DNA of 64,000 nt from Octopus vulgaris (GCA_951406725.2 OX597814.1:207452001-207516000); one strand, 5' to 3'; counted from the stretch's first letter, positions 11,142-59,482 are shown. Translations and numbers: made by a program. The notes: generated by a model from the sequence alone, not told the origin.

Positions 11142-12781
11142 TTAGAAACATTGTGATTTGGATTTCCTGTGGTGCCCCTGATCTGGTTGATCACAGTAAA
11201 GTGTCCAGCAGTAGCCAGACAGCATACTGTCATTCTAGAAGCCTTGGTACTGTTTCTCGATAGCACTAATGCCCTGGTGAAATCTTTTACCATGTTCATC
11301 AGACACTGTTACAATGTTATCTGCAAAGAAATCCAGATGGGAGCCCAAGGAGTGAACTTTCAGTGACATGCGACAACCCATTGCTAAGTAACATTTTAGA
11401 AGATTCTTGATGCCATCTTTGTATTCGATTGCCTTCTTGTTGCCCAAGAAATTCTCACAGATCCAATTGAAAGCATTCCAGCAGGCAGTTTCAGTTCATC
11501 CAGTGTTGTCCTGAAGTTGACATCTTTGAGTACGTCTCTAATTTGGGGTTCAACAGAGATACCCTCTTTCAACTTCACGTGTGTGATTTTGGGCAACTTT
11601 TTTACAATATACTCAAACCCTCTGGTACTTTTCTTCCCTAGTATCTTTACAAACTGTTTCGTCAGTCCAAATTTTATGAGCAAAGGAGGCGATAGGACAT
11701 TACATGGACGTACAAGAGGTTTATTCTTGATGCTAGACAGTCCTGGCTGGTATGATGTCCTTGTCTGCCAGTTTGATTCCGAATAATGTCTGTCAGTTGC
11801 CCAACTGTCCCATAGACACAAGAAACAACTGTATTTTGTGAAACCTGACTGCATTCCCATTAACAGTCCAATGACTTTTAAATCTCTGCAAATTTCCCAC
11901 TAGTATCTTTCACTGGCAAAGGCATGAAGTAAAAGTTTCATACTCTCATATGATTCATGAAGATGAAAGGAGAGTGCAATAGGAATGGAAGGCTTCATAT
12001 TACCATTATGGAGAAGTACAGCTTTTAAACTTCGTTTTGTAGAGTCAATAAACAAATGCCACGCTGTAGGATCATGATTTTGTGATAAACATTCAAAGTC
12101 CATCATTGTTACTGCAAAAGTAAAGCACACCTTCAACAAAAAAAAATACATTTGTAGCACCACATTTCTCTGCCAGAAATAAGTTATACGAACACCGTGC
12201 TCTAGCAGATACTTCTCCTTAAGTCTTGATGGCAACAGTTCTGCTTTATCTTTTGAGAAGGATAGTTCTCTGACAAGGTCATTCAGTTCAGCTTGGAAAA
12301 ATTTCTGAGGCTCAAAGCTATTGTCATCAGCCATATAATCTTCCTCAGCAGCACTATCGTGACAATCAGCGTCATCATCTGGTGGAACTGGCATTGGCAA
12401 ACTTCCATTGTGAGGTACAGGTCTCATTGCAGAATCCAAATTGGGATACACAATTGTGTGTTTATTCTTCATAGAAAATCTTGTGACATTTACTTTGCAA
12501 AAATAACAGTCATTAAAATGGTCTTTCAGCTCCCTCCATATCATTGGAATGGCAAAAGGCATGGACTTCTTATTATTGAACCAGTTACATAAGCCATTTG
12601 AGCAAGCTGAGCTGATAAAATGTGGTACCCACAACTTTTCCTGATCTCCAAGAGGACAGTCAAAGTATAGCTTATAAATCTTCTTGATCTCTGGTGTTAC
12701 TGTACGTTTTTGAGTTTTCACAATAAATTGTCCACAGACATAACAAAACACATCAAGATTATTTCTACACTGTCTTGACAT
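11142..12781 (-). pseudogene. Chapaev3-type transposase pseudogene (~545 codons)
   Basis: Motifs MSRQCRNNLDVFCYVCG, WVPH, MPFAIPMIWRE..DH..DCYFC, LFIDSTKRSLKAVLLHNGN, GMQSGFTKYSCFLCLWDS, MSLKVHSLGSHLDFF..VSDEHGKRFHQ and YCW. In-frame TAG at 11900 and 11235, plus frameshifts near 11480 and 12095-12145. Confidence 0.88.
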
Positions 12782-13964
12782 TGTTAACACAGTAAAACAA
12801 TTAAGGAAATAGATACAAACGGTTATACTTATACTGAATTTGAGATGATAAAATATCTCATCAGACCAATTATGACTGGACAATTTGAGATGTTGAAATA
12901 CCTATTTCATCAGACAAAATTTGATTGGTTAATTTAAGATGATGAAATATTACATCTGAAATATGCAGCAACGAATAATGTAGTTTATTTTAAAAAGTAT
13001 GTTTCCATGATGTAAATGAAATACATGCATACACATTATTAATTGGAATTTCTATATAATGTATAAGCAAAAACCAAAAACCTTTCTCATCTTGAAAACT
13101 GTATGTGATGTCAAAAAACTAATTGTATATTTGAAATCAGCTTTAAAAACTTCACTAAGTACACCTTGACATATGCTTGATGAAAAATATTTGTTGATCA
13201 TTGTTATCTGAAAAATAAGTATTCTAAGATAAAGATTCTTAAAAGGTGAAACTTCAACTGTGGGAGTTTTCAGTATTTCTATACTGATAAACTGTAGATA
13301 TAAAAAACTGAACTTTACTGATTAATTTTTTGTTAAAACTACTTGATACAACCTTTTGAGAAGTTTCAGGTTCGTAAACTCAAGATATATCTTCAGATTA
13401 TGTACCTAGTATATAGACTAAACAAAGTGAGCACAAAATTCTTTCTCCTGTGACATTCATCCTTGCTTAGTTGTAAATTGCAGCAAACCTATAATCAATA
13501 GTATTCCAGCTATGACCATCCCATCTTTTATACAAACAGGGCATTTAGGATTACACCATTAGCCAACATGCTCTTCCTTAATAAGACAGTAAGTAGGGTA
13601 TGATTTGAAGGAGATTTTGCTGCTATTTCTAACAGACTGAGTAATCACACAGAGCAGGAGTTGGCAACCTTTCTTGTGAAATGGGCCACATGAAATATGG
13701 CTACCACAGGTAGCCCATAACCGATGCGGAGGTTCCTTCATTAGTTTGGTTGGTTTCAGGAGTGCACAAAATTTTATATCTGATCAATCATACATAAACA
13801 TTAATCAATCAATGAAGAAAAGGATGACTGAAAAAGAGAGAGAAAAGTAAAAACTATCTCACATGAAACCCTTTCAATCAGTAATGATTGAATAGATGTA
13901 AAAGGTTTGACTGAACATTAGTATTACTTGTTATGAGCTTGAGTTAAATTATTTGAAGCGATCT

Positions 13965-14271
13965 TCAGACTTTACTTTTACACTCCTGCCTCAACTTTTC
14001 CTGCTTTCATCCAATTCACACATGGACATGCCTACAAAGTCAGAAAACAGCACAGCTCCCATGACTTTCGGAAACATTTTTTCACGCTCAGGGTTGCTGA
14101 AGCGTGGAATAAACTGCCTGCATCAGTTGTTGACTGCCATGACACTGCATCCTTTAAGGCCCTCATGCTTCCCGAAATCCGTCGAAACTACACCTGATTA
14201 TATATACACTTTAGATGAGTTGTAGTGCACCTGAGCACTGTACACAATAATTATTATTATTATTATTATTA
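13965..14271 (+). mobile_element. CR1/L2-clade LINE 3' end
   Basis: Translation HGHAYKVRKQHSSHDFRKHFFTLRVAEAWNKLPASVVDCHDTASFK...* (stop 14195-14197), a short 3' UTR, then an (ATT)n tail. Confidence 0.8.
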
Positions 14272-15107
14272 TAAAACTGCTGTCTTAAAAAGTAAAGATT
14301 CAGATTTTCTTTCCTATTCTGATAGAATAAACCATATCTTTTGATTTCCATTGACCACATCTATTCACATGGTTTTAGTTGATTCAGGGCTATAATAGAA
14401 GACACTTGCCCAAAGTTCCACACAATGGGACTGAACCAAGACCATGTGGTTGGGAAGTAAACACAGCCTTACCGGTACCTACCCATTCCTGAAATTATCA
14501 CATTATTGTTCTACTTCACCTGTGGACAAAAAAACTTAGAGCTTACTACCCAAGATGCTTTCTTGTCCACAGATACTAGGAAACATTTTACATTTTCTTC
14601 ATCCACCCTAACCTTTTTTTCTATTTTCATCTATATAATTCTTTCTTATTTATTTACTGCCCACAAGGGGCTAAACACAGAGGGGACAAACAAGGACAGA
14701 CAAACGGATTAAGTCGATTATATCGACCCCAGTACATAACTGCTACTTATTTAATCGACCCCGAAAGGATGAAAGGCAAAGTCGACCTTATTTCTGTTGT
14801 TGCTGTTGTTTTAGACTCTGAATGAGCAGTATGGTCAAGAGCAATCTAGCCATTTTGCATATAAGAGATATTGTCCAATATGTCCTTCCATTTTTAAGAT
14901 GTTAAGGTGTGATTTCAGGGACATTTGGTTACTTTTCATAGTATTTCAAGAGACTTTATGCAGGCTTTCCTTTTTTGTATGTATGCAGGTCTCTGCATAT
15001 TATGAATTAAAATGACAGAACACTCATAGTTGAATGCTTGTGTATCCTCCTGTAGCTTCAAACATGAAGTGCAATTTTATTTTGGAAAATGTTTACCTTT
15101 GTGCATG

Positions 15108-15143
<36 letters not shown>

Positions 15144-15717
15144 CACGCACACAAAAACGTATTTAGGAAATGAATTCAGGAGTTTGAGGTAGAGAAGCTC
15201 TTCCAGAAGTGAAATAGGATAGAATTTTATTTTTATCACTATACCATCTTGATTTTTATGACTAAACCAACTACGATGTCTCTCTGCTCCCTCAGCCCTA
15301 CCCCTAACAGATACTGCTCTCTGTTCTCTCAGCTTTAGATATACAAGGATTTGATAAACTAGTCTATAAATTAAAACTGATCCCATAAAAACTCAGTGAC
15401 AGGCAGAGTCTGTAACAATGTATATCTTCTTGATAACTTAGTAACTTCTATGTTGGAGTTCTTTGTCTATTTCCTTAACTTCTTAAGAGATTTTAGGTAT
15501 AATTATACTAATCTGTTCTAATTAAATTAAATTCTATGTTTTGTGTAGCTGAGGATTGCTCATTGTTCAATTAAATGGAGTTGTATGAAACGATCATATT
15601 GCATTACCTCTGGATATCCTTGTTGCTTATTTTGATTTTAATCAACTTATTTTGAAATTGTATGAATAATACCGTACTAAATTCTGGTGCCTCAAGTTAC
15701 GTACCATATTCATCTGA

Positions 15718-15767
<50 letters not shown>

Positions 15768-15958
15768 ATACTCTTTTACTTGTTTCAGTTATTTGACTGC
15801 GGCCATGCTGGAGCACCGCCTTTAGTCGAGCAAATCGACCCCGGGACTTATTCTTTGTAAGCCCAGTACTTATTCTATCGGTCCCTTTTGCCGAACCGCT
15901 AAGTGACGGGGACGTAAACACACCAGCATCGGTTGTCGAGCGATGTTGGAGGGGATAA

Positions 15959-16034
<76 letters not shown>

Positions 16035-16048
16035 TTATTTATATACAG

Positions 16049-16099
<51 letters not shown>

Positions 16100-16653
16100 T
16101 AGGACTCGAAACCTTCAAAGGGATGTTTAGCATCTTAGTTCCTGAGGAAACGCCTAATTTGTGATTTCAAAAGGATCATATTTTCCTCAAAGTTATGATG
16201 GAAAAACTCGGATCATATGAATCTTGTGAATTTTTTCGAAGTCCTCTCCCACCCCCGTTGCTTTCCGCACATTTTTGTTTTCAGATTCGTTTCCTACGTG
16301 AGTGTGAAGTAGAAAGATATCCATATTCCTCAAAGTTACGAGAGAAAAACATCGAAGATTTTTCCCCACAAATTTCTTTATAATCGTAATCTATATCGTT
16401 TGAAAGGTATTCATATAAAATTTCATTAAAAAAAAAAAAACAACAAAAAAACACACATTTTCCTAAAAGTTATGAGGGAGAAATATCGGATCTTGTGAAT
16501 TTTCCGAAAGCCTCTCCTCACCCTTCGTTGCTTTCCCGGAAGTTTTGTTTTCATATTCGTTTCCTACAGCTCTTTTTTACACTCGTTGCACTATTATTTT
16601 TTTTTATTGCGTTTCCGGGTAATAATGTCAACATTAAACAAATTTTTTTTATT

Positions 16654-17945
16654 AAGGCGGCGAGGCCTTGTGCCTATAGTAGAAATAATTATTAAGGTGG
16701 CGAGCTGGCAGAAACGTTAGCACGCCAGACGAAATGCTTAGCAGTATTTCATCTGCCGTTACGTTCTGAGTTCAAATTCCGCCGAGGTCGACTTTGCCTT
16801 TCATCCTTTCGGGGTCCATTAAATAAGTACCAGTTACGCACTGGATCGATATTATCGACTTAATCCGTTTGTCCGTCCTTGTTTGTCATCTCTGTGTTTA
16901 GCCCCTTGTGGGTTGTAAAGAAATAGGTATTTCATCTGCCGCTACATTCTGAGTTCAAATTCCGCGGAGGTCGACTTTACCTTTCATCCTTTCGGGGGCG
17001 ATAAATTAAGTACCAGTGAAACATTGAGGTCGATGAAATCAAAGTCCTCTCCCCCAAAATATCAGACTTTGTGCCTGTAATAGAAAAGATCGTTATTAAT
17101 AAGGTGTCAAGCTGGCAGAATCGTTAGCACGCTGGGTGAAATGCTTAGCGGTATTTCGTCTGCCGTTACGTTGTGAGTTCAAATTCCGCCGAGGTCGACT
17201 TTGCCTTTCATCCTTTTGGGGTCAATAAATTAAGTACCAGTTACGCACTGGGGTCAATGTAATCGACTTAATCCGTGTGTCTGTCCTTGTTTGTCCCCTC
17301 TCTGTTTAGCCCCTTGTGGATAGTAAAGAAATAGGTATCTCGTCTGCTGCTACGTTCTGAGTTCAAATTCCGCCGCAGTCGCCTTTGCCTTTTATCCTTT
17401 CGGGTTCGATTAAATAGGTATCAGTTACGCACTGGGATCGATGTAATCGACTTAACCCCTTCCCCCCAATTTAGGGCTTTGTGCTTCCAGTAGAAAGGGT
17501 TGTTATTATTATTATTACTATTAATGCGGTGAGCTGGCATAATCGTTAATATTTCCTCTGTCTCTACGTTTTGCGTTCAAATGCCGCCGAGGTCGACTTC
17601 GCCTTTCATTTTTACGGAGTCAATAAAATAAGTACCAACTGAGCACCGCGGTCGATGTTATCGAAAAGCTCCCTCCTTCCCCACCTCCCTCAAAATTTCA
17701 AGCCTTGTGCCTATGTAAGCTGAAAGAATTAGGATTATAAGTAAAATGCAGTGAGCTGGCAGAGTTGTAAATTCGTTGGAAAAAAAACAAACTACTTGAT
17801 GATTTTTGTTTAAACGCGTTTACATTATGAGTTCAGACCCCACGGTAGTCGACTTTACCTTTTAATCCTTTCGGAATCGATCAAATGAAGTACTAGTTAA
17901 GTCCTTGGTAGATGTAATCGACTAATCCCTCCCACCAAAACTTTA
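16654..17945 (+). repeat. Head-to-tail cluster of SINE family C (Nin-domain-like). Dispersed copies at 14645-14790 (-), 36418-36647, 46965-47170, 47990-48220 (-), 63068-63530, 63560-63770 (-)
   Basis: Repeated ggcgagctggcagaa..gttagc head, gagttcaaattcc B box and ctttcatcctttcggggtcgataaattaagtaccag core. The core resembles the Nin domain of invertebrate SINEs. Confidence 0.85.
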
Positions 17946-18289
17946 GATCTTGAAATTATAAATGAAATTGTTTATTGACGAATTCCCTGTAGTATAATTA
18001 GAACATATTTTCTGAGTAAATCAGAAGAATCCACACTCTCTGTTGGAGCTTATACCGTGTTTTCGATGTTAAATATTTCAATATGCTCATGGTTCAATTA
18101 TCTGCCTCTGTTGATACTGTAGGCGATGGGTGGTAGAATCAGATGAATGTCAGTTGCGCTTTACGATTCGAGTTCATTTCACACCAGGGTCGACATCGCG
18201 TTTTATTCTTCCGTGGCTCGATATGATCTGCTATATTTCTCTCCAAGATGTGTGGGATTGTATTAATATTTAATTCTTGTTATTTAGTC

Positions 18290-18620
18290 GGAAGAATCGG
18301 AGCAGTGGTTATGACCTATGCAAACAGTCCTTAACATGAGACTGACCCAGGTGATATTCAGCTTCAACTTCGCATGGGGGTGTCTTTAGCTAGGTGACTA
18401 AAGAGGGTTTTCCAAGGGGTTACAATGCAGGGAAAGAAATAATCAGAGCCTGAGAAGTGAAACACCATGAAGATAAAGTTAGTCGGAGAAATGGGTTCAC
18501 TCAGAGGGCTTGATGAGAGAGGTAATCTAGCTTGATACTTCAAAGAATTAAAGGACGTTATAGTAGTGCTAGAGTAAGTCGAGAGGAGACAAAGTGTCCA
18601 CGTGCCAATTGTATCATATT
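18290..18620 (-). mobile_element. Highly decayed LINE (L2/CR1/Jockey-like) 3' remnant
   Basis: Minus strand gives YFFPCIVTPWKTL, resembling the 'SFFPRT..WN.L' motif at LINE ORF2 ends. Weak. Confidence 0.3.
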
Positions 18621-19099
18621 GGTAAATATATATTTGCTGAGTTAGTACATCACTATCACACGAGCACAGCTCATATCCAGATACTCACACATGCGCTATA
18701 CAGAAATAGTAGATAAATCTCCCGCATATTACACTAGCTTAAAAACTATAATTATATTTTTTGGTGGGGGATATTCCCAATACAACGAAAAACAGATGGT
18801 CACAGATAAAAAGCTTTTCTTCATTTTAGTTTTTCCAGTCATTATTTCCATCTACAGGTTTTAATCTGTCTTCCTCAGTTCGACTTATTCTTGTTATTGA
18901 TAATATAATAATAATGATGATCCAGGAAACAAAACCTCGGAAAAAGTACTCGAAAACTCAAGTGTCAAAAGTTGAAATCGGTCATTCAGAGTGCGAAAGC
19001 TTGACGTTTAAGCTAACATATGTAAATGTGGACTATAAATGGTGTCACTTCCATGTGTGTGTGGGTGGAGAGAAGGTCAGAGATGACTGTCAAATATTG

Positions 19100-20913
19100 A
19101 AATATTTAACATCGGAAACACGGGAGAAGCGCCAACAGAGAGTGTTGGAGTCTTGGAGGTGAATAAACTGGAAAGAGAGAGAGAGGGAGAAGGAAGGAAA
19201 GAAAAAAAAAAATAAACAAACTGAGTTACCGCCCTTGATTAGTTTTAGCCAACGTTTAGATTATGAGAGGGCGCTGTTTGTATTGTGATGATGCTACAGT
19301 AGTTTCTGCTAAGAGATTCCACGGTGTTATTTCCTACTCCCACCACTACTATTGCTACATCTTGCTTGTCACTCCCATCATCTGAGTCTCTCTCAGATAA
19401 ATATTCTGTTACCAGTGTTGCCTACCATCATTGCAGCCTCAGCAACGCATATATGCATATGTAGCATAGGAGAGAGCGTGTGCGTGTGTGTGTGTGTGAG
19501 CGCTGGCGCGTCACTGATGGACAACTCTACCTGACTTTGGCTTTATTATACAAGAGAAAACGGAAAGGAAGCACCGAGTATATATCTATCTATCGACCTA
19601 TCGATATATATATATCCAAGGAAAAGGAATTACACACAAAAAGGTGGGGGAAGAAGAAAAAAAAACAAGCAACAACTTAAAAAAAAAACGAAGAATAAAA
19701 ATCTACTCAACTCACATGTGGATATGTATCTATATAATACGGATCAACCCTGTTTCAAATCTACGTATGTATACATAATTATAAAGCTATAAATGTGCGT
19801 ATATTGACATATATATATACTATAATCATCATACATTATATTTCTGTTATAAACTAAAGGCTGTCTGCCCTAACTGACAAGCTTGTTGAAGAGTTGTAAT
19901 TAGTCTCTCTGGGAAACTTCATTCAACGAGCAATATAAGACCGGTGGATATTACACTTGGAAACGTCATAGATACTGGTAAACCAATTCCATTTACCCAC
20001 TTACTTGGTTTTTTTCACGATACGGGTGAATACATTTATTGTTTTATTAATCAAATATCACCATTATTCGAATTCTTACAACCCTCAGCATTCTTCCCCT
20101 ATCTCTCTATCTCTCTCTCTCTCTATTTTCTCTCTCTCATTCACTCTCAACTATTTCCTTAATTCTATTTGAATAACCCTTCCAGCTAATTTGGATGTCA
20201 ATGCGTTGTCAAGAGTGAAATTTATAGTAAAAGAAATTGGTTGTTTAGGCGAAGTAAGACTTTTTAATTTTTTTTTTCTTCTTCCAAACACATCTCGTCT
20301 AATCGAAATGCGGTGTGTTCACATTGAACCCTCACACTTTCTATTCTTGTTACCAGCAGCACTGTACCCCCAGCACGAGTGAGTGATGTTTGGTGTGACA
20401 CAGGGCCAAGGGATGGCACCAACAGCACAACCACTGCCGCTACTGCTGCTACACCATATACGACAATTCCGACAGCGACCTCTTATCTTTCGCTACAATC
20501 GTTATCACCAACCGTATATTCGAGTAATTCACAATAATAAGAATAAAAAATACACCACTAACATCGCTTCTACAAAGAGCAACAACACTAATAACACTGC
20601 CAATTGTGTAACTACTACTAAAGTCTTAGCATCTACAGGTACCCGCTTCATATTCGATCTAACTTCATTTGTAACTAACAACAAGAACCAGAACAACAAT
20701 ATTGTTGCTGACAGTTCTGACTTTGGTGCTTTATATTCAATTAGTTCGTCTAAAGCTGAAAACAGTTTATCTTCCTTATCATCATATACAGGGTGGTTAC
20801 AAAATAGGGGATCATCGTGAAGCTAGGAAACACACACACAAGCACGCAGACGTATGAGGCTTAACTAAATATTTGCCCAACTAGATTTCACATAATTCGA
20901 AAACATAAATCAG
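19100..20913 (+). promoter_or_regulatory. Probable promoter and long non-coding first exon of the downstream gene
   Basis: Transposon-free and relatively CpG-retaining stretch directly upstream of the coding exon. Candidate donor CAG|GTAAAA at 20913/20914 and acceptor ccacag| at 21746. Confidence 0.4.
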
Positions 20914-21753
20914 GTAAAAACTCCCAAGAAAACTTTAAAAATTCTCAAACAATTTCATTCATAAACTCTGAAACAAATACAATGTAGTTTTATAACGGAA
21001 AATGAAAATTAGATTAAATTATGGATCCCTTACTTTGTGACCACCCTGATTTTTTCTTTTCGCCCTTGTTTTCTTTGTGTTTGCCCTTATCGTCAACTGC
21101 TAAACTGTAACATGTTTGCCAGTTTTATCACCCATTATCGACTACTTCTCTTTTTACTTCTGTAAACCATGAAATATAAACATAGCTAAAATCCGTGTCC
21201 GTACTATTTCCTCCTTTTGTTTCAATTTTTCGCACCTTAACTGCAAATCATCGGCTCCCCACAATCAACATGGTCAGTGCTTTGCTAATTGTTAATACGT
21301 GATAGTTGTTATATATTATTACAATACTTTTTGCTTGTTAACTTTTTTCATATGTTACTGATAAACACTACAAATATTTCGGTTTAAACTGACAAAAGAA
21401 GCTCCCACTTTTTTCTTATATATTTTTTATTTTGTTTATTACAATTAAACAAATACTTTAAAGGAAAATCTGTTAAGAATTTCTCTTCCGTTGAGAAGAT
21501 TCAGAGTGCGCAAAAAAATCAATAAATTTAGTAAACATACGATTCCGATGAAGATATGTAAATAAACATTTCAGCATTGTACTAGGTCACATTCAAATAG
21601 CTTGTACCTGGCTAAAAAATACCCGGTTCGGGGGAGATATTTTTTTACACTTGATCATTCATACGCGTACGTATATAGACATACATAACGTACTATCATT
21701 TGTTAGTATACACCTTTTTTTTTATAATATAAATTATCTACCACAGGTTTTGG

Positions 21754-24067
21754 ATGTTTGCTCTAACTAGATCGAAGTCAATGTCGAAGAAAACTTCTAA
21801 AACGTCGCCTTCTTCATCACCGCTGTCCTCCGCGGCTGTGGTGAAGGAGGCAACTGACAGTTGGAAAAGCCGTAGTAATCGTAACAATAACAATCGACAC
21901 CATCAGTTACAATATTCAGCCAGTCACTTGGGCTGTAGTACAAGTATAAGCAGTGGTGCTAGTGGTCCCAAGGTAACTAAGAAATCGGCTCACTCAACTG
22001 TTGGTGGCAATCCTACATCTATGACGTCCTCAAAGACTATGATTGATGGCAGCGGTGTGGCAGTTAATGAAGCTAATCTTGGTTTTCTTGGACGGCTGAA
22101 GAGAAAGTTTAGGATCCATACCAACAAAGGTAGTTACAGTCTTTGCCAGGAAAATTTGTCAAACAATAGCCATTATATGGCACGTAGTGAGAGCGAAATA
22201 TATGACAATAATCATCACGCAGGACTTACTTGGAAAGAAACTAAATTACGTTCAGAAAGCTTACCCCGCACACGACAAAACCCGTTTTCGACTGTGAAAA
22301 AGACACCGCATCGGCAGAATTCTTCTTTCTGGGGAAGACATTTCCCAGATAACCAAAATATTGTAGACCCATCATGGCTCACTGAAGAATCCGACGAGGG
22401 GCAGTGTCGCCCATTGTTGAATGAATCAGGTGAAGTAAGGAATGATTTTTTGAGCTTGGATGAGTCTGCAATTGACTTGGATAATGAACCTGCAACTAAC
22501 GATGTCTTGAATGATGAACCAGGTTATGAAAGCTTGGAAGAAATCAAATTAAAAATGCAGTTAAATCAATTAAAACATTCTTCTGTTTCTACTGTTCTTG
22601 AATGCCCTGAAACCCCTGATACAAATGACTTATGCTGCAATGGGGTTTCATTACAAGTTAAGTCCTCCTTGTTATCTTCAGCATTACCAAAGAATGGCCA
22701 GCTCAAAAATGCAGACCATATTAATAAAAACTGTCAGAATGGAACAGATAACATGTGTGAATGTACCAAAAATTTGGAGCTACATCCTGCGGAATGTAAT
22801 AATGATAACAAACTTGTGTACTACTGTGATGAAAGAATGTCACCTCCTCCTGCCTCGTTAGCAGCAACGACACTACAGTCTTTAAATTGTTGCCGTGGTA
22901 GGCAGACAGCAGAGAGTGGTGCATCAAAAATATGTCTGAATTTACCAACTTTGCAATTCTCGTGCCCTTCAAGAAATCCTTCAGTTGATGATACAAGTCC
23001 GGATTCATCTGATCTGTTTTCTGATGAACTCTATGCAAATCCCCAAATCCTTATCCGCAAAAAGTCCCGATCAAAACAATCATTTCAAGAATCTGATCGA
23101 ACAAGTAAAGGTTCTACATATGAAGGAATTGCAACAGGTGCAAGTGATTCAAATGGCAATTCAAAAGAGAACAACGAACAAGACATGTCTCCAAAAGAAA
23201 CACAAACTGACTTGGCACCACCATTGCCTGCTCGAAACTATCGCCCTGATGAGAAAGGAGACCCCGAGAAATGTGAATCCTTTAGCACTTGGTGTAATGA
23301 CTATGCTAAAGGAACCTCAATGGTGGAAAATACATCATCCGGGACACCTTTCTTCAACAACCTGTGTTTACCTGAAACTTCTCTCCCACTGCCTCCCTCA
23401 GATGTTCCTCCCCCACTCCCACCAGATAACCGAAAGTCAGTGTTTGCTGGTAGTAGTAGTTCAAGTGATAAAGTGAGTGCTAATGTGATAAATCCAATGA
23501 CTAAACTTCGGCTGAATGAACAGCCTTCACTGGCAGCATCTTCTTTAGAGCAGTTGTTGCAAGAATCTTCAGTTGCTCCATCTTTTAAACGACGAGTTCT
23601 TGATGAACCAATTCATGCTTCCTTAGAGGAGGTTTTCCCCAGAATGCGGACACAACATAATCCTTGTCGATCAAAATTAACTGCTTCCTGGAATGGGGAG
23701 CGTTTAAATGCCAACACCAGTAATCATTGGGATTTTTTCATGAAGGACAGTCTCCCTAAGTCTTTGTCTTCATCAAAAGTGTTAGATGAACCTATCCATG
23801 CATCATTAGATGAAGTATTTCCTCAAAGAAGGCAGAGGCAAAATACTAAATGGAATAGAAATAGTCTTTCATCATTGAACTGCAATGGCAGACGTTTCCC
23901 TAGTGCTGAGAATAACTGGGAGGTTGTCGTTCAAGAAGGCAGCCCTAATTTATTTGGATGTACCCAGATGTTTCCTAGTGTTAATGGCCTGATCAATCCG
24001 GAGATACCACCACCATTGCCTGCTAAACGGAAAACTAACCAAAGTTGTTTAGGATCCTGCAAATCTG
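21754..24067 (+). CDS. Large first coding exon (771 codons, phase-1 end) of a disordered Ser/Pro-rich signalling adaptor-like protein with PPPLP and Tyr motifs; 3' exons not identified
   Basis: 781-codon stop-free ORF in AT-rich DNA. Acceptor ccacag at 21741-21746 just before the ATG and consensus donor G|GTGAGT at 24067/24068. Motifs APPLPARNY, VPPPLPP, IPPPLPAKRK, EPGYESLEEI, ELYANP. An internal duplicated motif differs almost only at synonymous sites. Confidence 0.88.
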
Positions 24068-25420
24068 GTGAGTTTACTTTTGATTATATTCTACACTAAT
24101 GTGTTTTTGTATGTTTTGGAAATGTAAAATATATATTTGAGTGTATACATATAAACAAAAACAGTTTGTGTGACTGACTGAAGTGATTATGATCTGAATT
24201 CAAATTTAGCAACAGGTGTTGCGTTGTAACCTTGGAAAAGATACATGATGTCAACTGCTTCTGTGTCCACTTTGATGGAAAAACTTTACACTTGGTTGTT
24301 ATTCCTGTAACCCACTGATGTTTATTTAGGTCTCAAGTCATCCTCTTTGAGTCCATTCATTTTCCATGCTTTACCCTGAATTGAAGCTAAATCAAGCAGT
24401 TGTTAATTACTTTGCATTATTTTTTATTAATAGCATTGATTTATTCCAGCTCTGCAGTATCTATTTACAGCCTTGAGGTCTGAACTGTTGAGTGTCTTGG
24501 TCATGGATACAAACCATTGTCAGTGGTTGGATTAGAACTTCTGTGATCTTATTTAACACTACATCAACTTAAACTACATCATCAAATCAGAGCCAGCCCT
24601 GGAACTTTTACATGGTTACTTAGCCTACTAGAAATAAGATACTTCTCCACAAATCACATTTCACTCTCTTAAGGAAAAAAAAAGGGATACATAAGATAAT
24701 GTAGTTCTAGATACACTATATCTGGAAAAAAAAATGGATAGGTCATAGATCTGCTTGGTCAGCGTTGACTTCTGGCTAAACAGTAGTTTAAACCTAACAG
24801 CTAAACAATAGATCTAGTTGATCTGGGGGCTCAACAACATTTCATTTATTTTGCTGTAGATTTTCATTTTAATGTTATCAGGTAAATTTCTTCCATGCTA
24901 CTTAAGAGAGATTTAGAATTTATAAAAGTTACACTATTCAAGCATTAATAGTTGCAACATAATTTTGTACATGTCGATAATCTAATGTATCAGTGCTTCA
25001 AGGGTTGTAGTTGAGCTTGCAACCTAGTTTTTATTCATGATTAGCATCATTGCACATCATTATAATTCATATTAGTCTCTGCAAATTCCAGCTGTTTCTT
25101 CAAGCTTTGGAGAGGGATTGGGACTTCTAGGCTAGCCATGGCATCTTTTATTCCTTTGCTTGTTTCAGTCATTGAAGTTCAGCCATGCTGGGGCACTCTC
25201 TGGAAGGATTTATCTGAATAAATCAACCTCAGCACTATATTTAAAATCTGGTACTTATTCCATTGGTCATTTTTGCTTAATTGCTAGGTTATTGGAAGGT
25301 AAACAAACCAACATCTGTTTTCTAGCAGTGTCTGTGTGTAGGGAAACACAGAAACACATGCATATGTTCATCATCATTAAACATCCATTTTCCATGCTGG
25401 CATGGGTTGAATTGATATAT

Positions 25421-33772: not shown

Positions 33773-34493
33773 GATATATATATCCCTCTCTATTTGTTCT
33801 CTACTTATTATTCCTTTAACCCTTCTCTTCCTAGTATCTGCCTTTGACGTCAAATCTACTAACGTTTATTTTAAATACTTAATAACGTTCTGTTTATCAT
33901 ATAGGCAGTCATCGTAATTGTTATAATGTCTTGTTGTTGAGAGAGGCTCTCTTTCTTTCCTGATGAGAAGATTGCATTTTACACCGTTTATTGCTTTGGA
34001 ATAAAACCATGTTGTCTTCGAAACATATATTGAAAGTAAAAGAATTTTATTAACATCTTCGTTCAACTCCATTTATTTATTTATTCATTTATATATATAT
34101 ATATATATATATATAGTGGATTCTCATACTGCTTTCAACATATGAGGGCCCAATTCTCAGGTATTTGACTACCCACACAGATGATTCATTTCCATTTGTG
34201 AAGGCTTTTGTAGGAGCAGCCACACATTTTGGAAGTGTTGATAGTAGAAAGTTGGTGCAACTGTTTGCTACAAACTCTGTTAGTTCCTCATCCCCTGGGT
34301 TTTTACATTCACCATAGCTTAGAGTCCAACATGCCCTGATAGACTAAATATGCACCCAGGTATCAAACAAGAAATTTCTAAGTTTCATGTATACATACGT
34401 GTGTGTGTGTGTGTGTAACCTATGCTGTAGATATATAGATAGGGCAAATTTAGCTATTTCTCCATAAATTGAGAAAATGGTGAACAGCTTTAA

Positions 34494-38772: not shown

Positions 38773-41700
38773 TGTGTCCTTTACTGTTTTCTTTTTTAAG
38801 TACGTAATTTGAGGAGTATTTTGTTATTTTCTAAATTCCTGGACCACATAGAATCTCACCCATTAGTTTAATGTTGAAATAGTAGCAGTTTTAGAAACAG
38901 CATGCAACTGGAATATACTTGCTTAACTTTCATTACAGAAAAAAATCTTAAATTCTCAAACCAAGGCTGTGCAGTATCTTCTTGCTTCTTCTTAATGCAT
39001 ATATAGCAAATTCTGCTCTTGAACTTTCTGACTACCCCAGTTTCAGTCAATCTGTTGCATTTGTTTCTCTGTTTATTATCACTTGTACTCATATTTCTGT
39101 TTGTACTGAATTTCTTATGTCCTCTGTTCTATGAACTGCTAACTCCATGGAATTTATTTCATTGTGTTTGCATATTACAAGAACTGTTGACATTTTAAAA
39201 CATTAATCTTTCCAATCTTAGTTTCTCTTTCTTTCCTTGTAGAGCAGACAAATCTTTTGGGAATTAGCAAAGAAAGTGGATTGCAGGTTAATTTCAACTG
39301 ATGGGCTTGTAACTATAAATCCAGTTAATTAGATGTAATAAGCTTACTATATAGACTAAGAAAAGCTATATTTTGATAACATAGACAGTAGTTTAAGGCC
39401 TTGTCATTTGTGACCCATTGATAAATGATGGGTAATTTCATGTTCATCCACTGCATGTCCATGGAATATTAATGAGAAAATACCCGAAAGACACTTATCT
39501 ATGTGCCAGTTTCTGCTATTTTACCTGTAAGTAAATAAAGATGTATATCAATTGAACTTGTGACAAGTAAGATCATTGATGTTAGCATATATGAAAGTTA
39601 AACATCACAGGACATTGTCAATAAACCTTTGAAAATTTTGGGCAATATTTCAAACACCGAATGGCATCTGTAAAAGTTTGTAGAGTTCAAAGGGTTGTGG
39701 TGATGGCTATTTTATGAATATCTTTTGGATCTCCAGGAATCTGATTTTAAACTAAATCTAAAAAAAAAAAAAAAAAAAAAAAAAAATTCTTGTACCTTAA
39801 ATAAATCTTGTAAATGTGATATTATGTATTTACCAGGAACTATGCTGATGTTATATGTCTGATAATCAGCACAAGGACGTAGTCACCTTAAGTTTTTTTT
39901 CTTCTTTTGTTGGAACTGCATGTGAGCTGATAACTAGTTGGGGCTGTATTGATGAGTAGTGTCAAGTTAAAATATGTAATAGAGCTCCTGCTTGGGTATA
40001 TCTAAACAATCTAGAGAGCTAGGTACCAATGTTTGATACTGAGCTCCCTTGCTTTTGATCTGGTCAGTAACACTGACACTGTGCACTTCTCATTTCATCA
40101 TATTCAATTTCAAATGTGTAAATTATTAAGATTATCTTGTGTAAGCAACTAGAACCATTTTTTTTTTTTCCATTTGAGAATTGCATTTTGTTTAATCAAA
40201 ACTTCACTGGAGAATGTTTTGAGTATTTAATATGTCATAAAAAGTTGTTGTTTTTTTTAACATATAACCTAATCACTTATTTCTCATAAAAGTGATGTAT
40301 GAGCCTTCAGATGTAAATGCAATGTAAACAGCTCGGGTGGATTGCAACTTGAACAGCTCAAACCGGTTAACACTGTGCCAGAATTCATTGATATGGATAC
40401 CTATTGATATACTCTCTCTCTTTTACTCTTTTACTTGTTTCAGTCATTTGACTGCGGCCATGCTGGAGCACCGCCTTTAGTCGAGCAAATCGACCCCGGG
40501 ACTTATTCTTTGTAAGCCCAGCACTTATTCTATCGGTCTCTTTTGCTGAACCGCTAAGTGACGGGGACGTAAACACACCAGCATCGGTTGTCAAGCAATG
40601 CTAGGGGGACAAACACACACACATACATCTATATATATATACATATATACAACAGGCTTCTTTCAGTTTCCGTCTACCAAATCCACTCACAAGGCATTGG
40701 TCTGCCCGGGGCTATAGCAGAAGACACTTGCCCAAGATGCCATGCAGTGGGACTGAACCCGGAATCATGTGGTTGGTAAGCAAGCTACTTACCACACAGC
40801 CACTCCTGCGCCTGTGTTAATTTATCTTATCTACTATCTTTTCATGGCCCTCAATTATCTAATACGCTCATGCTTATCTCTGATTTTTGTAACATCAAGC
40901 CAATAAGGTATGAACCCTATCCACTGGGATAGGTAGCTGACCATCAGCAAGTAATTTGACCTGTTGAATAGTATCTAGCATGCCACTTTCAGCTTTCTAA
41001 AGTGTTACTACTGTTTACTGAGGAAAATTATATAATCTTTCAGTATCTACTTGTTGCAAGGTGGATTGACCCATTGAAAGCTAAGTATCTTCACTTTGGC
41101 AGTATCACTTGATGATGAGAATTTGAAGTATTCCACTCTTGGTCGCCTGCTATCCTATTGGCTTTCTATCCTACCCTAACATCTCTGTGTTCCACCAATT
41201 TTAGTAAGGCGGATATTTAATCTATGATGTGAATTTTAGGAACAATGATATTTTGTGGTGTGTGGTGGGCAGAACTTGTAGTTTTCAGGTCTGCTATTCT
41301 AGTCTAACAAGAAATTGAAAGTAGATTATACATTCCATTTACTAAATAGTGGAGGAGGTGGGGAAGATTTACTTGTAAGTTTTTACCACAAGAAATTTTA
41401 GAATTTAATATATTTAAAAGAATTTTTGAAAGTCAGTTTTCGTTTTTTTAATACATATATTATTTTTTGGAAAAAGCATCTTGAAAATTAATGTCCTCTA
41501 CTTCTAAGATGTTTATTCACATATATGTGTTGTATCAAGGATATGTTGAAGAGATTTCATTTTCTTTATTTTCAATCATGAAAAGGAGAAATGTTGCCTA
41601 TAAGTCTTTTTCTACAATGTGTGTGTGTGTGATTTTTCTGTTGAGGTCTCAGATCCTTTCGTATTTCATTTATAAATCCTATTGTATTGCATATGTCACA

Positions 41701-50882: not shown

Positions 50883-51540
50883 CCCTTTTGTTGCCAAGTT
50901 TCTGTTGAAACATACTGCCTTTGTTTCACTCAATTTTTAAAATTATGAAAAAAAATTTAGTAAAAAATTTAGAAAAAAAATAGGCGCAGAAGTGGCTGTG
51001 TGGTAAGTAGCTTGCTAACCAACCACATGGTTCCGGGTTCAGTCCCACTGCGTGGCATCTTGGGCAAGTGTCTTCTGCTATAGCCCCGGGCTGACCAATG
51101 CCTTGTGGGTGGATTTGGTAGACGGAAACTGAAAGAAGCCTGTCATATATATGTATATATATGTATGTATGCGTGTGTGTGTTTGTGTGTCTGTGTTTGT
51201 TCCCCTAGCATTGCTTGACAACCGATGCTGGTGTGTTTACGTCCCCGTCACTTAGCGGTTCGGCAAAAAGAGACCGATAGAATAAGTACTGGGCTTACAA
51301 AAGAATAAGTCCCGGGGTCGAGTTGCTCGACTAAAAGGCGGTGCTCCAGCATGGCCGCAGTCAAATGACTGAAACGAGTAAAAGAGTAAAGAGTAAAATA
51401 ACTTTATCGTTATTAAACTCATGTTTGGAACATAAATCAACAAGAAATATTGATGGAAGGTTTCAATTTAGATCACTTTAAAACAGGAAGTCTCTATCAA
51501 AGAACCAACAGTGATCTTGTGCAAGTTGGTAATAAAAGGG
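50883..51540. mobile_element. TTAA-specific MITE with nested family A SINE (50983-51394)
   Basis: TTAA|CCCTTTTGTT...AATAAAAGGG|TTAA; interior similar to the reverse complement of 54757-54977. Confidence 0.75.
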
Positions 51541-56278: not shown

Positions 56279-57833
56279 CTGTGTGTGTGTGTGTACAAAT
56301 GAAATGGCCAAGAGCTGGATTATTCATTCTTCTCTCGAGATTTAATCTTGCAGGTATTTTTGTTGTATATATATATATATTTGAGGCAGTTCACTTATTT
56401 CCATACATCAAGCTACTTGGGTGGAATGAAATGAAGACACCAGGTATTGTGAGAATAACCTCAATGACTGATAGTTTAAGGTCTTATTCTGTAGAAGGAA
56501 AATATATTTCTCTTCTTCATTAAGAATATGTGGCTACATGTAAATGAAATTAGGCATTATTAAGCATTGAGATCTTATAGGGCATGTGTGTGTGTGTTTC
56601 CATGTTAAAGCTGCAGTATTTTAACCTCGGTGTTGAATACTGAATCGTGGCCGATGCCAGTGCCGCCTCGACTGGCTTCCGTGCCGGTGGCACATAAAAT
56701 GCACCATTCCGACCGTGGCCGTTGCCAGCCTCGCCTGGCACCTGTGCAGGTGGCACGTAAAAAGCACCCACTACACTCACGGAGTGGTTGGCGTTAGGAA
56801 GGGCATCCAGCTGTAGAAACACTGCCAGATCAGACTTGAGCCTTGTGCAGCCTCCTGGTTTCCCAGACCCCGGTCGAACTGTCCAACCCATGCTAGCATG
56901 GAGAACGGACATTAAACGATGATGATGATGATGTTGAATAATTTCATTCATGAACTAATATGAATATGTTTTGTGGTAATACATTGTATCTGACTTGTAG
57001 TCTATGCAAAATATTATTAATAATTTGATGTGAGATGATATAAAGATTGATTGAAGGTGAAATAGAGATATTGCAAGCTTTGTTGTATATCTAATGTTGA
57101 GTAAACATCTGTTATATATAATATTTCAGGGATAATTTTTCCACATTTGAGCCACTTACTTAACTGAATGTAACCACAGAACATTCATATAGCAAAAGAC
57201 ATACACTGATATCATTTTAAACATTTTTATTTGAAAAGTTATAAAATTTTTGTATAACAAATACAGTTTTCTAACTTCTAAAGAGTGCACAAAAAATATA
57301 CTTCTGTTTCCATCTTCTATTCTTCTGTCATAGTCTTCATTCTCTGGTGACTTTTGCAAACAGTACACATCCCTATTTCAACCAATACTCATGGTCCATT
57401 CACATCGCATGCATGTACTAGTGTGGTTGTTTCTGCTAATTACACTGGTTGATGCATTTAATGTTTACTACAAATCTTTCTTTTGGCCCGCTTGTGGCTG
57501 TGTGGTAAGTAGCTTGCTAACCAACCACATGGTTCCGGGTTCAGTCCCACTGCATGGCATCTTGGGCAAGTGTCTTCTGCTGTAGCCCCAGGCCGACCAA
57601 TGCCTTGTGAGTGGATTTGGTAGACGGAAACTGAAAGAAGCCTGTCGTATATATGTATATATATAAACAGTCAGAATGCGATAAAATAAAATTAATTATT
57701 ATCGCTGGTGTTTCTAGCACAGGCCATATATTATTCATATATAAGTACACTAACCGGCGAAGTATGTACTAGAAACACAGAAGCTTGATAAATTTAGTGA
57801 AATGAAAATAAAAACTTTTATTAACTCGGTTCT

Positions 57834-57906
57834 TCTTAGACTGCAGTTTCGCCTATTTCAGCAATAAAAATAATATTTATTTACCCAGGTAGGCTCTTCA
57901 GTAAGA
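57834..57906 (-). ncRNA. Type I minimal hammerhead ribozyme, copy 1
   Basis: UCUUA-CUGAAGA-GCCUA[34-nt loop]UAGGC-GAAA-CUGCAG-UC^UAAGA: full CUGANGA/GAAA/UH core, 5-bp stems I and II, palindromic stem III. Predicted cleavage between 57839 and 57838. Confidence 0.88.
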
Positions 57907-58234
57907 TTCCTGTTATTCTTAAATCGCAACTCGATAGACACATGTGCGTCTAATAATTTGCTCTTTCTAACAAATCAGATCACTGCGCAGACGCAGAACG
58001 TACCCGACAAACTAGGGATTTCTGGTATATAGTCTAACGCTCAAAATTTATCAAGAAATATGTAAACAAAGTCAGAATGCGATAAAATAAAATTAATTAT
58101 TATCGCTGGTGTTTCTAGCACAGGCCATATATTATTCATATATAAGTACACTAACTGGCGAAGTATGTACTAGAAACACAGAAGCTTGATAAATTTAGTG
58201 AAATGAAAATAAAAACTTTTACTAACTCGGTTCT

Positions 58235-58307
58235 TCTTAGACTGCAGTTTCGCCTATTTCAGCAATAAAAATAATATTTATTTATCCAGGTAGGCTCTTC
58301 AGTAAGA
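58235..58307 (-). ncRNA. Type I minimal hammerhead ribozyme, copy 2
   Basis: Core and stems identical to copy 1, with one substitution in loop II. Predicted cleavage between 58240 and 58239. Confidence 0.88.
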
Positions 58308-59482
58308 TTCCTGTTATTCTTAAATCGCAACTCGATAGACACATGTGCGTCTAATAATTTGCTCTTTCTAACACACATATATATATATGTGTGTGTTTGT
58401 GTGTCTGTGTTTGTCCCCCTAGCATTGCTTGACAGCCGATGCTGGTGTGTTTACGTCCCCGTCACTTAACGGTTCGGCAAAAAGAGACCGATAGAATAAG
58501 TACAAGGCTTACAAAAAATAAGTCCTGAGGTCGATTTGCTCGACTAAAGGTGGTGCTTTAGCATCGCCGCAGTCAAATGGCTGAAACAAGTAAAAGAGAG
58601 AGTAAAGAGTTGTGCTCAGTTTTCATGCAGTTTATTGTTTAACCTTCTTTATGGGCAATGAAGAAATTGCTGATATTTTTTTTTGTTTACAGAGAATGAT
58701 ATTTTTCTTGTTTTTTGACTAGTTACAAAGGCCCGATATTTTAGGATAGGTTTTATTCATGCCTTCTCCACAGGTTAAGTATATTATCGTATATTGTTAG
58801 AAACCCCAGGTTGGCTTTCATTGAGCAGGTGTATGGTTTGCAAGTAGTTAACCAATGGACAAGATGCAACCCCTGAAATCCATCTTCCCAGTTAAACCCT
58901 ATCTCCACCAATGAGGAAACCTCTGTGCAGTTGCTGGGCTTGGAAGAAATTTTAACCAAATCTTCCTTCAAATACTAGCCTATTCTTAAAACAGGATGGA
59001 TATTAGTAGCATAAGTGAAGTAAACTTGTGTCTAACAAAAATTGGAGCATCTGTTGGTTTATGGAATGCATTTACTTGATAGTGAATAATTCTCTAACTG
59101 TTGAAGAGTTTTGGTTAACCGAATGATTATAACACTGTAGCAGAAACTTCATTGTATTTAGTTTGGAGATTTTGCTATCCTAAGTTGAGTTTCCAGTGGA
59201 GTCCACTGTGCTTTTCATTCTACAAGGTATCAATAAAATGAGAATAAGTATTACACTGTCATTGATTGAATTGAGCTACCCTCTCTCTTTACATAAGAAA
59301 ATATATTTAAAAAAATCTGGCTGCATGTATGCCTACTGAAGAAAGATAAATAGTAGTGCAGATAAAGTATGTGAGTATGTTTGTGAGTTGAAATCTGGTA
59401 AACTAATTAAAGCAATATCTCCCAGATTATCACTCTATTACTCTTTCTCTCTCTCAATGTATAGGTATGCATGTTTTATATA

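Follow-up and report, generated by a model that had tools for sequence, protein, structure and literature searches.

In a 64,000-nucleotide stretch of Octopus vulgaris DNA (GCA_951406725.2 OX597814.1:207452001-207516000; hereafter, the window) we found an insertion built of tandem, hammerhead-bearing, non-coding units, which is very probably a young copy of a retrozyme-type family. While retrozymes themselves are a known kind of element, this family is likely undescribed so far. In the explanation towards which we lean, and which we hold to be reasonably probable, the units spread as a non-LTR retrozyme by way of circles and a Penelope-type enzyme that directs them to (TA)n targets. The element is most likely a selfish repeat without host function. 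The features of the locus are the following:

57665..58373, minus strand: whole insertion, a 5'-truncated array of 1.77 head-to-tail units (401 nt each, non-coding)
58240..58373, minus strand: first copy, 5'-truncated (unit positions 268-401), up to the first predicted cleavage site
57839..58239, minus strand: complete unit between the two predicted cleavage sites (401 nt, 33% GC), corresponding to the predicted monomer or circle
57665..57838, minus strand: 3'-terminal partial copy (unit positions 1 to ~176), stopping at the fixed 3' end of the family
58234..58308, minus strand: hammerhead 1, type I (core start 58302; predicted cleavage 58240/58239; 34-nt stem II extension 58257-58290)
57833..57907, minus strand: hammerhead 2 (core start 57901; predicted cleavage 57839/57838; stem II extension 57856-57889)
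58058..58070, minus strand: internal copy of the putative priming site, a T-rich stretch followed by a TA-like tract
57648..57664, no strand: (TA)n target tract on the 3' side of the element
58374..58388, no strand: (CA)/(TA)n tract on the 5' side of the element
57494..57650, plus strand: left half of the host SINE-like repeat
58388..58600, plus strand: right half of the host SINE-like repeat

The initial annotation of this stretch had described two 304-bp direct repeats with three differences, set 97 bp apart, and these were recovered just as given (57669-57972 and 58070-58373, offset 401, with exactly three mismatches at 57755/58156, 57821/58222 and 57884/58285). The 97 bp, which had been regarded as a spacer, turned out to be the single-copy part of a tandem unit: since the matches in the genome align as head-to-tail 401-nt arrays, the locus amounts to 1.77 units, of which the 97 bp form a regular part. 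The single locus is a tandem unit without a unique core and not a pair of terminal repeats. From the proposed bounds of the insertion, the end (58373) was retained, while the start had to be moved from 57669 to 57665.

Six-frame translation recovered no long open frame within the insertion, in line with the claim that it lacks an ORF. Its supposed position in the (TA)n tract of a SINE was equally corroborated, as the flanks are the two halves of one SINE-like repeat. Uninterrupted copies of this repeat lie at other positions of the window (e.g., 50992-51397, 40426-40803), and from its A/B-box-like start it is presumably derived from a tRNA. A 2-nt deletion adjoins the 3' end of the insertion, and inside the microsatellite at 58374..58388 a target-site duplication is indistinguishable. 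The near-identity of the repeats had been read as the mark of a young insertion; by a calibration in which a distance of 0.09 corresponds to ~25 million years (PMC13282606), three differences in 304 bp would place the event in the order of 1-1.5 million years ago.

Genomic distribution and insertion ends

The searched assembly (2.8 Gb, 227 contigs) holds many dispersed copies beside autonomous Penelope-like elements (PLEs). Similarity searches of the octopus's own genome yielded 666 candidate places (40 scored) in one case and 876 in another. Exact patterns matched the 3' half of the hammerhead 120 times (0 in the control), the motif just past the cleavage site 161 times (0 in the control) and the cleavage junction 434 times (1 in the control), all of these exact matches representing units and not loci. 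Family I, with a nearest-neighbour distance of 0.88%, comprises subfamilies of 395-404 nt units in arrays of up to 6.5 units, and an older family II (692 candidates) consists of 428-430-nt units that are ~72-75% identical to those of family I. The short tandem units (dimer to multimer, within the ~150-450 bp typical of animal non-LTR retrozymes) with a type I hammerhead each, 33% GC and no coding frame, dispersed in many copies through a genome that also harbours autonomous PLEs, carry the sequence features by which such retrozymes are recognized. In the openly accessible literature that we searched, retrozymes of cephalopods were not found, and neither was a description of insertion ends like these; nor are ribozymes mentioned in the accessible part of PMC13282606. 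Assembled contigs from sequencing runs of unrecorded type cover the family at low depth, and some of them bridge the cleavage site, as a circle, a precursor or DNA would all do.

(TA)n was found on the 3' side of 112 and on the 5' side of 93 out of 122 array segments. The cleanest sample consists of 82 segments from chromosomes C1-C12 that were found solely by the post-cleavage motif and account for 99 of its 100 listed matches; among them are a locus of family II, a locus whose two arms were both counted and a duplicated locus. Of these segments, 80 ended at unit position 177-198, the point at which the alignment gives way to (TA)n. The 3' end is therefore fixed, ~176 nt past the cleavage site, and the 5' ends are spread, lying on average ~250 nt beyond the motif. 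Inside arrays the 3'-end point reads TTTGTTTACATAT, and at insertion ends it is joined to (TA)n instead; hence, the unit itself is TA-like there. In the window, 58058..58070 is the point at which insertions of the family change to genomic (TA)n.

Copies of family II stop either at the corresponding site or at another TA-like tract, close to position 113, and inverted pairs are frequent among them. An inverted arm was present at 4 of 10 family II termini found by pattern and at 24 of 33 found by blast (the latter set being biased by the query), and at 6 of 101 and 3 of 36, respectively, in family I. Instead of reaching the usual 3' end, one array (L130, G000:C1:98059940-98062954) stops at the predicted cleavage site; (TA)n and a short detached piece come after it, and either a cleaved RNA end or TA microhomology could have provided the start of priming.

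A fixed 3' end, 5' truncation, inverted arms and a microsatellite target are all present in the family, and the first three of these, together with two start sites, typify the insertions of PLEs (PMC8557442; PMC11167929). By this signature the family behaves as a non-autonomous PLE would, which we stress is not membership in the autonomous PLEs. Tandem arrays, a fixed 3' end, variable 5' ends, (TA)n targets and the lack of an ORF fit the initial proposal of a non-LTR retrozyme mobilised in trans by a Penelope reverse transcriptase.

Hammerhead conservation and predicted folding

Both repeats carry on the minus strand a stem I, CUGAAGA, stem II, GAAA, a palindromic stem III and GUC, with every core base intact, as had been noted, and the two cleavage positions that were said to bound a 401-nt unit were both borne out as predicted cleavage sites. 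The motif does not qualify as a minimal type I hammerhead, since its stem II, abridged to dots in the initial annotation, is formed by 4-5 pairs, an internal loop and a second, 9-pair hairpin (the 34-nt extension). Stem III is reduced to two pairs with a palindromic loop. The suggested comparison with the type I model of Rfam had a mixed outcome: RF00163 matches both hammerheads (57833-57907 and 58234-58308, minus strand, E 0.00018), but the score of 30.6 bits lies below the gathering score of the family (34), which counts against our preferred explanation. A stem-and-core descriptor identified 3 sites in the window, while none of 200 shuffled versions contained any.

Comparison of the copies points to constraint on the motif. 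One of the 25 positions in the core and stems I/III was polymorphic, against 100 of 376 in the rest of the unit (p 0.008); position 7 is free to vary, and at the cleavage triplet only GUC and GUA occur. In 21 copies (hand-picked across both families, and related to a degree that inflates the shuffle test) 4 pairs were changed on both sides and 94% of cells were paired, against 34-49% in slid controls, while a first set of 24 copies gave 91.5% of cells paired. A U4C change of the core occurs in 23 of 118 arrays. The U4C subfamily also has a mismatch at the base of stem II and has spread as widely as the others, which again counts against the preferred explanation; elsewhere, U4C was found to lessen activity in vitro, yet to support a viroid in vivo (PMC3088659). 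A large subfamily with a CCGAUGA core and the stem II-base mismatch, in arrays of up to 6.5 units, is found at loci L193, L194, L279, L293 and L307.

In the predicted circle the active fold lies at -83.2 kcal/mol and the lowest one at -90.2 kcal/mol, a cost of ~7 kcal/mol, and the predicted pairing probability of stem I is 0.06-0.22. For a 709-nt transcript the predicted energies are -164.7 for the double hammerhead, -156.9 for two single ones and -174.6 for the lowest fold, so that the active hammerhead is disfavoured in double and single form alike. The unit folds better than its shuffles (z -2.54), and in a consensus fold of the whole unit (87 pairs, 5 with two-sided change) the active hammerhead is missing. 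For PLE hammerheads, cleavage as dimers is on record (Lunse 2017 and Cervera 2014, as cited in PMC7761336). Some doubt on self-cleavage comes from Xenopus, where cleavage in vitro failed for 8 of 9 retrozyme dimers (bioRxiv 10.64898/2026.07.22.740005).

The template of insertion

We infer the steps of mobilisation, from cleavage and circle ligation through the annealing of (TA)n at the internal site to the identity of the helper, as follows. Transcripts of the units would self-cleave at the predicted hammerhead sites, and the cleaved 401-nt monomers would close into circles. A borrowed Penelope-type enzyme would nick genomic (TA)n, and the nicked end would anneal to the TA-like site inside the unit and prime target-primed reverse transcription (TPRT). 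By copying round the circle until drop-off, the enzyme would leave a fixed 3' end and variable 5' ends.

Among the 82 segments, 81 read through the cleavage site and one stops there, where 3.5 would be expected at a constant drop-off. With priming at position 176, a cleaved linear monomer would run out at the cleavage site in every case, so that the template was either a ligated circle or an uncleaved multimer. The same 82 segments show no pile-up of 5' ends at the cleavage site and hence no footprint of cleavage in vivo.

We consider it probable that the template was circular rather than uncleaved and linear. Units within an array differ by ~1% (297 of 27,942 comparisons, two badly aligned arrays included) and are separated from those of other arrays by median distances of 4-12%. 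When 42 units were placed in a tree, they grouped by locus, and arrays mixing subfamilies were never seen. Over the 7,296 sites of two-copy overlaps, array-private variants stood in both copies 8 times and in one copy 31 times, the expectation for double hits at that rate being ~0.01 (own arithmetic). In the 145 family I arrays sampled (a part of the family) no rare within-array difference was common to close arrays. Private variants that occupy both copies, together with the lack of variants common between arrays, favour one monomer being read more than once.

The strongest competitor, though in our view rather unlikely, keeps the family and the type of helper and takes as template an uncleaved linear multimer, with cutting that is rare or restricted to the protein-bound RNA and with long arrays rebuilt at the DNA level through unequal crossing-over or conversion. 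It accounts equally well for read-through, and it agrees with the unfavourable active fold, with the spread of the U4C subfamily and with the periodic patterns of long arrays. Moreover, unprocessed RNA is the main substrate of an anole PLE (PMC11167929), which counts against a cleaved or circular template. The daughters of a linear multimer, however, cannot exceed their source in length, yet homogeneous arrays of 3-6.5 units occur in several subfamilies (homogeneous sources may still lie beyond the 145 family I arrays sampled). The private variants in both copies of short insertions, the lack of common within-array differences between close arrays and the sustained conservation of the core are further points at which this account falls behind that of circles.

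The periodic variant patterns of some long arrays (L242, L141, L193) indicate that unequal exchange or conversion also acts, and this could explain some of the common variants. L242 (G000:C19:53544000-53551000) holds 5.8 units with period-3 variants, as would result from a template of three units or from a block of three that was duplicated afterwards. The search for source-daughter pairs, in which a variant of one source unit recurs in all daughter units, retrieved a single ambiguous candidate (L289/L307).

It is improbable that cleaved linear monomers were joined by template jumps of the reverse transcriptase, or that the helper was a microsatellite-targeting LINE. Reverse transcriptases of the R2/R4 type are capable of template jumping and microsatellite targeting, and locus L061 contains an ORF that is presumably R4/Dong-like. 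Against this, 112 of 119 cleavage junctions are exact (single substitutions account for 5 of the others), and such scar-free junctions, in arrays whose subfamilies are never mixed, argue against template jumping; furthermore, the 3' end lies inside the unit and not at the cleaved end, and matches the endings of PLEs in the same genome.

Candidate helpers and related elements

The helper is quite probably of Penelope type. That the locus is instead a truncated pseudo-LTR pair of an autonomous PLE, with no independent life, is highly improbable and already largely refuted: PLEs, too, have a fixed 3' end, are truncated at the 5' end, occur inverted and target (TA)n (PMC8557442), but every hammerhead is preceded by an earlier unit or by a truncation point, the arrays extend to 6.5 ORF-free units, and same-strand PLE coding within 1.5 kb was found at only 3 of 236 contexts, each time behind 24-62 nt of (TA)n. 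The initial annotation had named, as an outcome that (together with the lack of a ~401-nt RNA) would reduce the locus to such a remnant, that all other copies be pseudo-LTRs on autonomous PLE ORFs. This was not borne out; the hammerhead junction was fused to PLE coding in none of the 236 contexts. A further PLE-coding neighbour (L210), likewise behind a TA tract, carries its own hammerhead. An LTR-type structure, a chance motif, a Helitron or DNA transposon (only one end is fixed) and a plain satellite (copies are dispersed and their ends oriented) were rejected.

The genome holds several (TA)n-targeting PLE families, namely Neptune/Nematis-type A, the older B, C and D, and Hydra-type ones (clade labels that follow the motifs of PMC8557442 and not a tree). 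Neptune-type A has near-identical copies with stop-free frames of up to 1,214 aa, and the top hits at L326-L328 (e.g., G000:C13:24946500-24954500) are very young (median pairwise divergence 0.13%). One Hydra-type family encodes, in a 2.59-kb unit, an intact 717-aa frame with RWK, DKT and CxCx5C, and forms tandem and inverted arrays of copies that are 99-100% identical. This very young family, with a U4C hammerhead, is found at L428, L429 (G000:C3:37225000-37240500), L430 and L431; within the C3 array, units are 0-2 substitutions apart, and 6-9 substitutions separate them from other arrays. PMC8557442 records few Hydra families from molluscs. Pfam recognized RVT_1 in longer frames (E 5.7e-8 and 1e-4) and, weakly, GIY-YIG (E 0.0076, family A only); five partial proteins had no Pfam match, and no match was found in the PDB. 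The 13,647-19,450 candidates of the protein searches overlap between families and are not copy numbers.

Similarly to the unit, families A, B and D and the Hydra-type PLEs terminate at an internal TA-like tract followed by (TA)n; A, B and D also have in common a CACGTG motif 10-15 nt past the priming site. The hammerheads of Neptune-type elements are minimal and those of Hydra-type elements have a long two-tier stem II (one with U4C). Judged by hammerhead architecture alone, a Hydra-type helper is slightly favoured over a Neptune-type one. Comparison of the unit types with the termini of four Neptune-type (A-D) and four Hydra-type families gave no significant blastn or shuffle-tested alignment; the helper is therefore to be seen as a lead and not as a result. 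A likeness to the end of Neptune-B was noticed in the last 35-60 nt of family II (2 and 4 of 300 shuffles), this being 2 of 24 tests on T-rich sequence, with a wider alignment that is not significant (22 of 200).

Tentatively, and with considerably more doubt, we propose that the insertions are a record of rolling-circle TPRT, in which the (TA)n end would anneal in telomerase fashion within a circle under the action of a Hydra-clade enzyme, and that the young autonomous 2.59-kb Hydra-type element, whose homogeneous tandem arrays hold one hammerhead in every unit, may itself move via circles. If true, PLE hammerheads would gain their missing function. A PLE reverse transcriptase is known to start inside its RNA in vitro (PMC11167929). 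Circles of animal retrozymes are known as well, and their return to DNA, with the enzyme responsible, is a stated open question. As the family offers a priming site, a defined target, read-through evidence and intact candidate helpers, a single RNA, a (TA)n substrate and two or three proteins would suffice to test the rolling-circle model. Should a PLE enzyme insert such a protein-free RNA of 400 nt into (TA)n, the RNA would also represent a compact model cargo for RNA-templated insertion.

Non-LTR retrozymes, with circles shown, were described in coral, mussel and axolotl (PMC7229834), and units of this size were thus already known in a mollusc (mussel repeats of ~350-390 bp). They have in common with the octopus family the low-GC tandem units with one type I hammerhead each, the two-pair stem III with a tetraloop, the lack of an ORF, the many loci and the co-occurrence of PLEs. 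Insertion ends, target and priming site are resolved here, where stem II also bears a second hairpin, whereas the circles were demonstrated there. For metazoan retrozymes, PMC7761336 states that no motif hints at the helper, and proposes a rolling-circle cDNA. The vertebrate retrozymes of Li, Clavereau and Pollet (2026, bioRxiv 10.64898/2026.07.22.740005), described as derivatives of PLE pseudo-LTRs, likewise occur as monomers, dimers and multimers, with mobilisation by PLEs being proposed. Of the 57 families in Xenopus, 24 correspond to known elements, almost always to the termini of PLEs, whereas here no terminus of the PLE families examined aligns, and while that paper leans to local DNA amplification, the octopus family looks inserted as ready-made arrays.

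With Hydra-clade and Neptune/Nematis-type PLEs (Craig et al. 2021, PMC8557442) and the anole Poseidon (Frangieh et al. 2024, PMC11167929) the family shares the (TA)n targets, the fixed 3' end, the optional second start, the truncation, the inverted arms and the internal start of reverse transcription. The anole start site is not homologous to its target, whereas that of the octopus unit is itself TA-like. Hydra-type elements of the octopus carry hammerheads with the same long stem II (in one case with the same U4C), but in contrast to PLEs the family has no ORF and no sequence that can be aligned with those examined. Taken singly, the locus resembles plant LTR retrozymes, which have two hammerheads in ~300-bp direct repeats (PMC7761336); however, these are characterized by a type III hammerhead in LTRs round a unique core, a PBS, a PPT and a 4-bp TSD, as opposed to the type I hammerhead and the coreless tandem unit found here.

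The window contains one more hammerhead (33779-34090, plus strand, core 33960), at the truncated 3' end of a Hydra-type PLE family with ~1,990 candidate places, a long stem II, a palindromic stem III and a (TA)n end; other copies of this family have an endonuclease C-terminus upstream. A 788-codon open frame at 21733-24099 (plus strand, no match in Pfam) is likely a large exon. Two adjacent open frames of 333 and 167 codons at 11396-12901 (minus strand, no Pfam match for the longer) are presumably the remnant of a cysteine-rich DNA transposase.
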